Position numbers and translations under genes: made by a program
NCBI GenBank assembly: GCA_023898605.1
Contig: CP060230.1
Coordinates: forward strand, 67,944-131,943
Length of the DNA stretch: 64,000 bases
Source of the DNA: Candidatus Nomurabacteria bacterium
Lineage (GTDB): Bacteria; Patescibacteriota; Minisyncoccia; Phycocordibacterales; UBA9973
Direction: 5' to 3'
In this document: in pieces, positions 5,971 to 9,159 of the stretch
Layout of the letters: each line of letters begins with the position of its first letter
How positions within the stretch are numbered: position 1 is the first letter of the stretch
Notes under the pieces: model-generated
Told to the model about the DNA's origin: nothing
Databases searched by the model: none
Seen by the model: the letters and a program-made list of their open reading frames with translations, nothing else

Positions 5971-8900
5971 ATGAATAACTATGATCACAAAGGAATAGAA
6001 CGTAAGTGGCAAGAGAGGTGGGAGAAAGACGGTATTTATACTGTTTCGGACAAGGAAGAAAACAAAGATAATTTCTATACTCTAGTAGAATTTACATATC
6101 CATCTGGAGATTTGCATGTTGGCCACTGGTACGCGTTTGCAGTGCCAGATATTTTCGCACGATATAAAAGGATGCAAGGATACAACTCACTTTATCCTAT
6201 GGGATTTGATGCGTTTGGACTACCAGCAGAAAATGCAGCGATAAAACTAGGCGCAGATCCAAAGGTTTGGACATATGAGCAGATGGACAAGATGCGTGGG
6301 CAATTCAAAACAATGGGAGCAAGTTTCGACTGGGATAGAGAGGTAGTTTCTTGCGACCCGAATTATTACAAATGGACACAGTGGATGTTCAACCAATTTC
6401 TAAAAAATGATTTGGTTTATCGCGATACTACCAAGGTAAACTGGTGTCCCAAAGACAAGACAGTTCTTGCCAATGAACAAGTTGTAGACGGCAAATGCGA
6501 GCGATGTGGAAGTGAAGTAGAGCAGAAGAACCAGGATCAGTGGATGATTCGTATTACAAAATATGCCGATAGATTGATAGACGATCTGGATATTCTAGAT
6601 TGGCCAGATGCGATAAAAGATGCACAAAAAGCATGGATAGGAAGAAGCGAAGGAAGTGAGATAAGTTTTTCTCTAAATTATGAAAAAGAAAAAGTAAAAA
6701 ATGAATATTTCAAGTTTAGACCAGAACTTGTTGAATTAATTGAAAAAGGTTTGAAGACAGCAACCTTTAGAATGGAAGCTAAAAATGTTTCTGTTGGCGA
6801 TATTGTTAGTTTGATTAATTGGTCAGATGGCAAAGAAAGTAATCAAAAAGAGTTTGATAAAGCTAAAATAATAAAAGTCTCGGAACATAAATTAGGAGAT
6901 TTGCCACTTGATTATCCTGGTCACGAAAAAGATTCTTCAGTAGAAAAAAGACTTGCAAGGTATCAAGAATACTATGGCGACCACATAACAAACGATTCAA
7001 CTGTTTATATATATGAATTTCTTCCTCTTTCAATTCGTGTTTTCACCACTCGCGCAGACACACTATTTGGCGTGACATATGTTGTACTTGCTCCAGAACA
7101 CCCACTAGTAAATAAACTTCTTGATCAAGTAGAGAACAAAGAAGAAGTAGAAAAGTATATAGAAGAAACAAAGAAAAAGTCAGAACTAGAAAGACAAATT
7201 GGTTCAAAAGATCCTTCGACTGGCTCAGGACTAGGAAAAACTGGCGTAGAATTAAAAGGTATAACTGCAATAAACCCAGCAAATGGTGAAGAAGTGCCAG
7301 TTTGGATTGCAGACTATGTGCTTGCTGGGTATGGTACAGGTGCTGTTATGGCGGTACCTGCTCACGATGAGCGAGATTTTGAATTTGCAAAGAAATATGG
7401 ATTAGATTCTAAAATAGTTATTGTGAATTCGACCGGAGAGTGTACAGACGATGCTATTTCAAGAAATGTTGTTAAATCTTTTATAGAAAAGGACGGAAAT
7501 GTATATTTAGTAAGAGATATAGGTCCAAGCGGAAAGTCTTACTGGTCACTTCCTGGTGGTGGATATGAAGATGCAGAAGACGATATCTCTGCACTTACAA
7601 GAGAAATCATGGAAGAAACTCCATTTCGAAATATAAAAATTGGACAATTCATAGGGGCATCAAGACATTGCTATGATTTCAAAGCTATAAAAAATTCACG
7701 TTTAACAAAAATATTTTACGCAAGTTATGATATTGAGAATAAAAATTCAAACCCTCAAGTTCCTGGAAACTGGTTTCCAAAAGATGAGGCAATAAGGATG
7801 CTTTTGGAAGATGGAATAATAATAGAAGGAAACATACTAAGTAACTACTTTGAAGGAAAAATTAATACAGATAATGGAATTTTGATAAATTCTGGAAATT
7901 TTAATGAAATAACTTCAGAAGAAGCTAAGAAAAAAATCACAGAATTTGTTGGAGGAAAAATGGTAAAGACTTACAGACTTCGTGACTGGGGAATAAGCCG
8001 CCAGAGATATTGGGGTTGTCCTATACCTATAGTTTACGATCCGGAAGGAAAAGCTCACGCGATCCCAGACGAACATTTGCCATGGATATTGCCGACAGAT
8101 GTAGATCATACTCCAGACGGAACACCACCTCTTGCAAGAAGCAAAGAGCTTTTTGAACGAACAGAAAAAATATTTGGCGAAGGTTGGAAGCCAGAAGTAG
8201 AAACAATGGATACATTTGTAGATTCTTCTTGGTATTTCTATAGATACTTAGATAACAAAAACGAAAAAGAATTTGCATCGATAGATAGTATGGATGCATG
8301 GATGCCGATAGATATGTACATGGGAGGAGCAGAGCATACAACTATGCACTTACTATATTCACGATTCTGGACAAAAGCTCTTTATGATCTCGGACTAGTA
8401 AAAGATAACGAGGCATATAAGATGAGACGAAACAGAGGGCTTATACTTGGTCCAGATGGAAACAAGATGAGTAAATCAAAAGGAAACGTCATAAATCCAG
8501 ACGAAGTTGTAGATAGGCTTGGTGCAGATACGGTGCGATTGTACCTTTGTTTTATGGGGCCATACGGAGTGACTGTAAACTATCCGTGGGATCCAAACGG
8601 GGTTGTAGGTGTGAGAAGATTTCTAGAAAGAGTTTGGAAATTGAAAGAAAAAATAGATCCAGAGAAAAAAGTTTGTCGTACAGACCCACTTGTACACAAA
8701 ACAATCAAAGGCGTCACGAGTGACATGGAAGAGTTCAAGTTTAACACTGCTATATCCAAGATGATGATACTATCCAACGCTTTGGAAGGAGAGGATAAGA
8801 TAGTAGAAGCTTCTTATAAAGCCCTGCTTCGTCTTCTTTCACCATTTGCACCACACATAACAGAAGAGTTATGGCAATCTTTTGGACATTCTTCGTCAGG

Positions 8901-9159
8901 CTCAGAACAAGGAACAGAAAGTATCCACCTTTCTTCTTGGCCAGAATACGATGAGAGCATGACAAAAGACGAGACCGTTATGATTGGTATTCAGATTAAC
9001 GGCAAGGTTCGTGGTGAAGTAGAGGTTGGAGACGAAGATACAGAAGAATCAGTGAGAGAGAAGGTTATGTCTATAGACAAGATAAAACCATGGTTAGAAG
9101 GAAAAGAAATCAAGAAATTTATCTACGTAAGCAAGAAGATTGTTAACATTGTCGTATGA
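5971..9159 (+). CDS. leuS: Leucyl-tRNA synthetase with inserted ASCH-like and Nudix domains
   Basis: HVGH (HIGH) motif, WMIRITKYADRLIDDLDILDWPD, editing-domain motif TTRADTLFGVTYVVLAPEHP and KMSKS. Two extra blocks are present relative to canonical LeuS. One is GLKTATFRMEAKNVSVGDIV (ASCH-like). The other is LPGGGYEDAEDDISALTREIMEETPF (Nudix box). Total length is 1062 aa. Confidence 0.9.
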   Translation: MNNYDHKGIERKWQERWEKDGIYTVSDKEENKDNFYTLVEFTYPSGDLHVGHWYAFAVPDIFARYKRMQGYNSLYPMGFDAFGLPAENAAIKLGADPKVWTYEQMDKMRGQFKTMGASFDWDREVVSCDPNYYKWTQWMFNQFLKNDLVYRDTTKVNWCPKDKTVLANEQVVDGKCERCGSEVEQKNQDQWMIRITKYADRLIDDLDILDWPDAIKDAQKAWIGRSEGSEISFSLNYEKEKVKNEYFKFRPELVELIEKGLKTATFRMEAKNVSVGDIVSLINWSDGKESNQKEFDKAKIIKVSEHKLGDLPLDYPGHEKDSSVEKRLARYQEYYGDHITNDSTVYIYEFLPLSIRVFTTRADTLFGVTYVVLAPEHPLVNKLLDQVENKEEVEKYIEETKKKSELERQIGSKDPSTGSGLGKTGVELKGITAINPANGEEVPVWIADYVLAGYGTGAVMAVPAHDERDFEFAKKYGLDSKIVIVNSTGECTDDAISRNVVKSFIEKDGNVYLVRDIGPSGKSYWSLPGGGYEDAEDDISALTREIMEETPFRNIKIGQFIGASRHCYDFKAIKNSRLTKIFYASYDIENKNSNPQVPGNWFPKDEAIRMLLEDGIIIEGNILSNYFEGKINTDNGILINSGNFNEITSEEAKKKITEFVGGKMVKTYRLRDWGISRQRYWGCPIPIVYDPEGKAHAIPDEHLPWILPTDVDHTPDGTPPLARSKELFERTEKIFGEGWKPEVETMDTFVDSSWYFYRYLDNKNEKEFASIDSMDAWMPIDMYMGGAEHTTMHLLYSRFWTKALYDLGLVKDNEAYKMRRNRGLILGPDGNKMSKSKGNVINPDEVVDRLGADTVRLYLCFMGPYGVTVNYPWDPNGVVGVRRFLERVWKLKEKIDPEKKVCRTDPLVHKTIKGVTSDMEEFKFNTAISKMMILSNALEGEDKIVEASYKALLRLLSPFAPHITEELWQSFGHSSSGSEQGTESIHLSSWPEYDESMTKDETVMIGIQINGKVRGEVEVGDEDTEESVREKVMSIDKIKPWLEGKEIKKFIYVSKKIVNIVV

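Follow-up and report, generated by a model that had tools for sequence, protein, structure and literature searches.

Few bacterial enzymes are considered as conservative in their architecture as the aminoacyl-tRNA synthetases. The canonical bacterial leucyl-tRNA synthetases (LeuRSs), such as those of E. coli (4AQ7, 4ARC, and 5ON3) and T. thermophilus (2BTE and 1H3N), have the HIGH and KMSKS motifs, a CP1 editing domain with threonine-rich and HDxRD motifs, and anticodon-binding and C-terminal domains. All of these are common to the LeuRS discussed here, the leuS product of a Candidatus Nomurabacteria bacterium, encoded in a 64-kb stretch of contig CP060230.1. That whole stretch is called the window below. 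The fold is also the same, with target-normalised template modelling scores (TM-scores) of 0.65–0.77 at 28–33% identity. The difference lies in what CP1 carries. That is, the Nomurabacteria enzyme is about 200–250 amino acid residues (aa) longer, through two enzyme domains nested in CP1 loops.

The first of these is an ASCH domain and the second a Nudix hydrolase domain; their positions are referred to as site A and site B. Both had been recognized in an earlier note made from the letters of the window, which also proposed an editing role for the Nudix domain. The comparisons below bear out the domains and speak against the role. The reading we favor, and consider probable, is that the inserts are accessory, exchangeable hydrolase cassettes in permissive CP1 loops, likely engaged in nucleoside or nucleotide salvage or sanitation.

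The Nested Domains and Their Host Enzyme

Site A lies between the EGSEISF block, which ends at aa 233, and the TTRADT motif, which starts at aa 359. The 125 residues that separate them (aa 234–358; 6670..7044, plus strand, as are all leuS features) form the first cassette. Relatives for comparison were the 120 closest LeuRS clusters, all from the candidate phyla radiation (CPR), i.e., from Nomurabacteria, Paceibacterota, or Patescibacteria. In 78 of the 120, site A is 11–12 aa long, and its range in all 102 that are cassette-free there is 10–37 aa. The net insert is thus about 113 aa, against the roughly 115 aa estimated in the earlier note. The Pfam ASCH profile, PF04266, matches aa 248–352 (nt 6712–7026) over profile positions 2–101 of 103; the score is 31.6 bits with the full-length protein and rises to 36.3 bits when the insert is searched by itself (cut-off 21.2). 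The ASCH octapeptide, G260-L-K262-T-A-T265-F-R267 (nt 6748–6771), fits the pattern G-x-K-x-x-T-x-R and is of the threonine type (‘GKTR’), as in YqfB.

Structural evidence for the ASCH domain came from modelling. Sequence searches of the PDB gave no match, whether the query was the ASCH insert by itself or a six-sequence profile. In the AlphaFold2 (AF2) model of the full-length protein, the first half of the domain is poor, with a predicted local distance difference test score (pLDDT) of 37–59, because the alignment is shallow there (six sequences covering) and not because the segment is disordered. An exhaustive profile search with the ASCH domain yielded 250 relatives at E up to 1e-3, mostly free-standing proteins of about 105–116 aa, and added P0122, P0125, and P0129 to the LeuRSs that have ASCH at site A. 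Pattern scans, for which the search patterns were narrow, found it in only two species-representative genomes and one metagenome contig. When refolded from a 101-sequence alignment, the domain has a pLDDT of 92.6 and a predicted TM-score of 0.84. The best Foldseek match of this model in the PDB is E. coli YqfB, an N4-acetylcytidine (ac4C) amidohydrolase solved in ac4C-bound and ac4C-free form (9kyh and 9kyf), with a target-normalised TM-score of 0.80 and a root-mean-square deviation of 2.7 angstroms, and all of the top 21 matches are ASCH-family or PUA-like proteins. YqfB has the same threonine-type octapeptide and is of similar size. In contrast, the two are only 18% identical, and YqfB is free-standing, whereas the Nomurabacteria domain is embedded in a synthetase loop.

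The residues expected of an active ASCH enzyme are well kept. Conservation of each of the octapeptide residues K, T, and R is 90% or more among 101 members of the subfamily, and the threonine-type octapeptide is present in 118 of 150 subfamily matches. In the six aligned LeuRS copies, G, T, and R are kept in all six, and K is replaced by R in one. The same copies contain a G-H-E motif, in which H318 is invariant and E319 is found in five of the six; this motif is a candidate for supplying the acidic residue equivalent to YqfB Glu74. All 19 ASCH proteins tested elsewhere are reported to deacetylate ac4C in tRNA, with the Lys plus Thr/Glu being essential (preprint 10.64898/2026.02.27.708502). 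When the window is compared with L003, the proportion of nonsynonymous differences (pN) is 0.16 for ASCH and 0.12–0.19 for the LeuRS core. Synonymous sites are saturated in this comparison, at which point a ratio of nonsynonymous to synonymous rates is not computable, and pN values are used by themselves. Because pN of ASCH matches that of the core while synonymous sites are saturated, the comparison indicates core-like purifying selection on ASCH.

Members of the ASCH subfamily are also seen, by eye, fused C-terminally to a Mur-ligase-like protein (P0146, 559 aa) and to an α/β-hydrolase-like protein (P0236, 414 aa). Judged in the same way, the subfamily appears to be a frequently recruited module.

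Site B lies between the AKKYGL block, ending at aa 478, and the GILINSG block, starting at aa 636. The 157 intervening residues (aa 479–635; 7405..7875) agree with the earlier estimate of about 150 aa; in the 46 relatives without an insert at site B, the spacing is 4–51 aa. PF00293, the Pfam NUDIX profile, matches aa 506–610 (nt 7486–7800) at 43.0 bits (cut-off 21.1), over profile positions 12–119 of 134. The Nudix box is defined as G-x5-E-x7-R-E-U-x-E-E-x-G-U (PMC10148737). In the cassette it occupies aa 530–552 (nt 7558–7626), and G530, E536, R544, E545, I546, E548, E549, and F552 are present. The box departs from the consensus at one residue only, P551, which takes the place of G. Thus, the near-consensus box and the ASCH signature are where the earlier note had placed them, and the profile searches that it proposed confirm both domain identities.

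In the full-length AF2 model, the Nudix region has pLDDT blocks of mostly 81–94, its strand and helix order is typical of Nudix proteins, and the REx2EE segment is carried on the catalytic helix, residues 538–549. Both inserts are predicted as folded domains and not as linkers, in agreement with the earlier note. The nearest solved structure is the Aquifex diadenosine tetraphosphate (Ap4A) hydrolase 3i7u, which matches insert residues 27–134, nearly the whole domain, at E 8.6e-5. The next PDB matches are MutT-like proteins, NUDT1, CTP pyrophosphohydrolase, DIPP, and NUDT2. The Nudix Ap4A hydrolases and RppH, represented by the Aquifex protein aq_158 (3I7U/3I7V), share all of the box Glu and Arg residues with the cassette, and the strand and helix order predicted for the cassette would fit their α/β/α fold. 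The differences from aq_158 are that overall similarity is low, that P551 replaces G, and that the domain is embedded in LeuRS. A six-frame scan with hidden Markov models and regular expressions found no further ASCH or Nudix copy in the window.

The host gene is a single uninterrupted open reading frame (ORF), 5971..9159 on the plus strand, with an ATG start and 1062 codons plus a stop. The product scores 901.7 bits against the NCBIfam model for bacterial LeuRS, TIGR00396 leuS_bact (curated equivalog cut-off 548.4), in three stretches broken by the inserts, and the profile is matched through to its end (842/843). Pfam matches include tRNA-synt_1 (PF00133, aa 12–222), the editing domain (PF13603, 191.5 bits), and Anticodon_1 (aa 908–1024). 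The N-terminal half of the catalytic Rossmann fold, with the Zn-binding region, extends over aa 1–233 (5971..6669) and ends in the β-strand EGSEISF, which leads into CP1. The core of the CP1 editing domain, aa 359–478 (7045..7404), lies between the cassettes. The CP1 return, the second catalytic half, and the anticodon-binding and C-terminal domains follow site B (aa 636–1062; 7876..9159).

Motif conservation was read from an alignment of 83 LeuRS sequences, a mixture of insert-bearing and insert-free proteins. The HIGH motif is HVGH (aa 49–52, nt 6115–6126), with H49, G51, and H52 invariant, and all five residues of KMSKS (aa 832–836, nt 8464–8478), i.e., K832, M833, S834, K835, and S836, are invariant as well. 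In CP1, the threonine-rich TTRADT (aa 359–364, nt 7045–7062), GTG (aa 455–457), and HDERD (aa 465–469, nt 7363–7377) belong to the invariant patterns TTRxDT, GTG, and HDxRD; the invariant editing residues are T359, T360, R361, D363, T364, G455, T456, G457, H465, D466, R468, and D469. We take the TTRADT and HDERD residues to correspond to E. coli T252 and D345. Mean pLDDT is 82.5 for the full-length AF2 model, which superposes in Foldseek on the E. coli, T. thermophilus, and N. gonorrhoeae LeuRSs at E of about 1e-65. Judged by these residues and folds, leuS encodes an intact and presumably working LeuRS.

It is the sole LeuRS of the window. A second, freer LeuRS paralogue was considered and rejected, as the other class I enzyme, of 729 aa, is a ValRS. 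An assembly or annotation artefact is likewise rejected: the gene is in one frame, NCBI already lists an identical protein, P0001, under the title ‘class I tRNA ligase family protein [Candidatus Nomurabacteria bacterium]’, and independent assemblies from NCBI, ENA, JGI, and Logan show these architectures too. Finally, an intein or homing element is rejected. Pfam searches at E up to 1 found no Hint or intein family, and junction residues are lacking; the junctions read EISF|SLNY and IRVF|TTRA at site A and KYGL|DSKI and NTDN|GILI at site B, none with His-Asn.

The G+C content at third codon positions (GC3) is 0.18–0.20 in the inserts and 0.33–0.37 in the N- and C-terminal parts of leuS. These values do not single out the inserts as foreign, the CP1 host core itself being at 0.21. 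Low GC3 spans the whole CP1 region, 6670–7875, host core included, a pattern that past recombination of the entire block might account for.

Cassette Repertoire and Exchange among Related LeuRSs

The earlier note asked for a survey of LeuRSs in related lineages. The same inserts do occur there, so the architecture is not unique; what is rare is the ASCH plus Nudix combination, found in three of the 120 clusters. In all, 14 architectures are present among them. Site A holds ASCH in five, a serine hydrolase (PF06821) in four, a second Nudix domain in four, and a DUF559 endonuclease-like domain in two, with Ham1/ITPase, HAD, and a nucleotidyltransferase-like domain occurring once each. Site B holds Nudix in 65, and nine others have about 100–184 aa without a Nudix box. 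Three scanned representatives of these non-Nudix site-B inserts (from two families and a singleton) had no Pfam match. The two Pfam-less site-B families recur, one of 139 aa in P0065, P0086, and P0119 and one of 120–126 aa in P0058, P0071, and P0096.

Some relatives carry three accessory domains. P0070 (1376 aa) has Ham1 and Nudix at sites A and B, respectively, plus an HAD-like insert after GILENS. In P0004 (1237 aa), site A is occupied by a serine hydrolase and site B by Nudix, and ASCH sits at a third site, in mid-CP1. P0108 (1158 aa) likewise has three. The repertoire extends beyond these clusters: in a divergent lineage, the LeuRS of L004 (positions 3254–6673 of L004, from the Saccharibacteria-labelled metagenome-assembled genome CAZNZR010000001.1) has an ASCH cassette and an S-adenosylmethionine (SAM)-dependent methyltransferase insert, Methyltransf_23, at aa 642–792, within the second catalytic half. 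The methyltransferase insert is missing from L007, a close relative of L004 that also has the ASCH cassette.

At the other extreme, a minimal CP1 is seen in P0030, P0112, P0061, and about 20 other relatives, in which site B is 4–9 aa and the GILxNSGxFxGL segment that follows is also gone. It follows that much of that CP1 region is dispensable.

The distribution of cassettes does not follow the host. Over 2080 pairs, Nudix similarity and LeuRS core identity have a Spearman correlation of 0.18. LeuRS pairs with 91–97% identical cores have different cassettes or none, and the Nudix domain studied here is only 20–29% identical to those of LeuRSs whose cores are 72–86% identical. Cassette content is, by these measures, uncoupled from LeuRS phylogeny. 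The ASCH domain, conversely, is 68% identical to that of L004, though the LeuRS cores are only 38–56% identical, which points to lateral transfer of the ASCH cassette.

Two independent pairs of strains catch the exchange at close range. L001, with Nudix, and L002, without a cassette (complete genome CP064958.1), have the same gene order and flanks that are about 99–100% identical; what sets them apart is a divergent tract within leuS, about 2.1 kb long and centred on the cassette. L005, with Nudix, and L006, with a 126-aa non-Nudix cassette, share 2.3 kb with zero mismatches up to the left edge of the cassette, to the right of which there is an unalignable cassette and then a mildly divergent tract. 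As the alignments present them, the two tracts are the footprint of homologous recombination via the conserved leuS flanks. Because near-identical strains differ in the presence or type of cassette, LeuRS function in close relatives evidently does not depend on the cassettes, and these are laterally exchanged.

These comparisons bear on the editing role proposed earlier, in which the Nudix domain would extend LeuRS proofreading by hydrolysing misactivated aminoacyl-adenylates. The attraction of the proposal is that the module sits within the editing domain. Chemistry is the first objection to it. An aminoacyl-adenylate is an acyl-phosphate of AMP, without a nucleoside diphosphate-X (NDP-X) pyrophosphate linkage. 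Nudix substrates are defined by that linkage (PMC10148737), and the pyrophosphate bond they share is thus absent from the adenylate. Second, the canonical editing residues are intact and the editing motifs invariant in LeuRSs with and without inserts. Third, the cassette is absent or replaced in LeuRSs with 97% identical cores. Since it is present, absent, or replaced among cores that are 91–97% identical and among strains with about 100% identical flanks, it cannot be integral to LeuRS proofreading. We regard the proposal as having next to no chance of being correct.

Dispensability also invites the idea that the inserts are neutral or selfish passengers. That is, the loops would accept compact domains with adjacent termini, and these, once captured, would travel with a gene that cannot be lost and spread by recombination while doing the cell scant good, if any, some of them being catalytically dead. 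Besides the strain differences, the 43 of 120 relatives that are cassette-free at both sites, some with a site B of just 4–9 aa, fit this idea, as does a metagenome scan for close relatives of the Nudix cassette studied here, which found none. The catalytic motifs cut mostly the other way: among the 65 site-B Nudix cassettes of relatives, REx2EE is lost in five and kept in 60, with the strict box in 56, and every LeuRS ASCH aligned keeps G, T, and R in its octapeptide. The core-like purifying selection indicated for ASCH argues against passengers too, and the Pfam scan of the leuS product found no intein/Hint, transposase, or homing signature. Moreover, strongly reduced CPR genomes would be unlikely to keep 270 useless residues in an essential enzyme. 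Passenger status is, in our judgment, very unlikely.

That a single essential enzyme has two loops with such extreme turnover and lateral exchange could instead be a mark of conflict. Here, hypervariable hydrolase modules would guard LeuRS as a target of antibiotics or phages, acting on Trojan-horse aminoacyl-nucleotide inhibitors or phage-derived nucleotides, and an arms race would drive the turnover. LeuRS is a known target of TM84, the toxic moiety of agrocin 84 (PDB 3zgz, among the Foldseek matches), and the diversity of the repertoire, with hydrolases, transferases, and a nuclease-like domain, would suit such a role. The NCBIfam model for IleRS with a GNAT domain offers a precedent for a synthetase plus an accessory enzyme domain. 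The Nudix cassette also matches a PADLOC defence-candidate model, PDC-S07, at 37.8 bits, but this match is probably generic Nudix similarity, and ASCH has no PADLOC match. No defence or toxin genes were identified beside leuS, where the neighbours are YchF, MurJ, and LepA, and there is no evidence of any cassette acting on an inhibitor. We consider a conflict-driven origin improbable.

Proposed Functions of the Cassettes

Returning to the reading that we favor, the proposal has the following parts. The two CP1 surface loops would be permissive sites that host autonomously folding enzyme cassettes, with small hydrolase-type domains gained, lost, and replaced by homologous recombination through the conserved leuS flanks. 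Cassette A, a YqfB-type ASCH amidohydrolase with the catalytic residues Lys262, Thr265, and Arg267, is predicted to deacylate N4-acetylcytidine, either as the free nucleoside or in tRNA. Cassette B, a Nudix pyrophosphohydrolase with the metal-binding Glu536 and R544-E545-x2-E548-E549, is predicted to hydrolyse an NDP-X compound, Ap4A or a nucleoside triphosphate being the most plausible. Both would be accessory to aminoacylation and editing and not components of either. The benefit would be that a CPR cell that scavenges and has a reduced genome could salvage and sanitize nucleosides and nucleotides, with the cassettes co-expressed with an essential housekeeping enzyme.

We infer the catalytic activity of the cassettes, their substrates, and the salvage or sanitation benefit. 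The recurring cassettes, Nudix, Ham1, and HAD, alongside ASCH, fit this theme, which would suit scavenging CPR cells; Ham1/ITPase, HAD, and Nudix are families of small-molecule nucleotide hydrolases.

Several observations weigh against this proposal. The Nudix box has P551 in place of the consensus G, and the NCBIfam models for Nudix subfamilies all score 15–27 bits, far below cut-offs of 95–475. Other cassettes at these loops, i.e., DUF559, the serine hydrolase, the SAM methyltransferase, and the two Pfam-less families, misfit nucleotide sanitation. In addition, the proposal does not account for the choice of LeuRS as host; the ValRS, the GluRS, and a class II D/K/N-type synthetase of the window have no extra domains.

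The cassettes possibly act on LeuRS-bound tRNA or on Ap4A, and a stronger version of this is functional coupling. LeuRS would be a tRNA-binding platform on which ASCH strips ac4C or another N4-acyl group from bound tRNA-Leu, while Nudix destroys Ap4A or diadenosine triphosphate (Ap3A), made by ATP attack on enzyme-bound Leu-AMP, or decaps RNA. Some ASCH proteins that remove ac4C need an added tRNA-binding domain (10.64898/2026.02.27.708502), and LeuRS would supply the binding. Synthetases are among the main producers of Ap4A, which Nudix enzymes break down (PMC10148737), and the nearest solved relative of the Nudix cassette is, as noted, an Ap4A hydrolase. The SAM methyltransferase cassette of the other LeuRS lineage would suit a tRNA-modification theme, and the evolution of ASCH at the slow pace of the LeuRS core is also in keeping with coupling. 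Yet near-identical strains with and without cassettes imply that any coupling is dispensable, and the Ham1, HAD, serine hydrolase, and DUF559 domains at the same loops have no obvious link to tRNA-Leu. Nor was an ac4C writer found among the ten largest other ORFs of the window, the only ones scanned with Pfam. Coupling, the main alternative, strikes us as unlikely.

A broader proposal, which we make quite tentatively and with more doubt than belief, is that the CP1 loops of LeuRSs of Paceibacteria and other CPR bacteria are an in-protein integration platform. A pool of cassettes (Nudix, ASCH, Ham1, HAD, serine hydrolase, DUF559, nucleotidyltransferase-like, methyltransferase, and unknown folds) would circulate across strains and divergent leuS lineages by flank recombination and would be selected for acting on the molecules that LeuRS meets, i.e., modified tRNA nucleosides, Ap4A, and aminoacyl-nucleotide inhibitors. 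If this is true, an essential translation enzyme is a fast-evolving, strain-specific adaptive or defensive locus.

Setting in the Window and Comparison with Known Systems

Downstream of leuS, between it and murJ, is a gene for a 758-aa, apparently multi-pass membrane protein (9197–11473, plus strand) with no Pfam match. Its equivalent in L005 and L006 encodes 799 aa and has only faint TPR matches, and L001 and L002 have no equivalent, murJ being directly after leuS. The ValRS gene (19267–21456, minus strand) encodes only 729 aa, matching profile positions 4–696 of 860; the C-terminal coiled-coil region is missing. An unusual 499-aa fusion of LexA and a methyltransferase is encoded at 29551–31050 (plus strand). 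The LexA part is complete, with a DNA-binding domain (aa 19–80) and an S24 autopeptidase domain (aa 93–209) and a TIGR00498 score of 173.5 bits, and the C-terminal part is an N6/N4 DNA methyltransferase (PF01555, aa 257–487). Finally, a large serine recombinase with Resolvase, Recombinase, and Zn-ribbon domains (34287–35594, plus strand) adjoins a tRNA-Glu gene (35710–35782, minus strand), which suggests an integrated element or its remnant.

Full-text literature searches turned up no account of a Nudix or ASCH domain in LeuRS or in a CPR synthetase of any kind, in line with the earlier note, which was aware of none. The proteins themselves are already public, with precomputed Pfam matches, so the architecture is not hidden. 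What appears to be new is the recognition of nested CP1 enzyme cassettes and of their strain-level exchange. Recombination-driven exchange of cassettes within an essential gene is an evolutionary mechanism of interest in its own right. If the cassettes are active, they provide a natural doubly nested insertion that keeps three or four active sites per chain, which would be useful for protein engineering; they hint at a means by which CPR bacteria, scavengers with reduced genomes, hold on to nucleotide salvage and sanitation; and, given ac4C erasure by ASCH proteins, they offer a case, open to direct testing, in which an enzyme that removes tRNA modifications is physically joined to a synthetase that binds tRNA.

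Three further described systems are near in kind. IleRS with a GNAT domain, known to us by the name of its NCBIfam model, NF040702, is also a synthetase with an additional enzyme domain; in the LeuRSs, by comparison, the insertions are internal and nested, at two or more loops, and draw on an interchangeable repertoire. The BEAN/HABAS inserts of RNA polymerase (PMC11515920), lineage-specific and polyphyletic, are likewise compact domains repeatedly inserted at permissive loops of an essential, conserved enzyme. They are reported to be non-catalytic, structural, and lineage-fixed, whereas the LeuRS inserts are enzyme domains that vary between strains. The third is the LeuRS editing domain itself. 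A 2026 survey of 213 insertion events recorded it as insert-only, with zero host events (PMC13114784). In the Nomurabacteria LeuRS, in contrast, the editing domain acts as a host, and the result is a domain within a domain within a domain.

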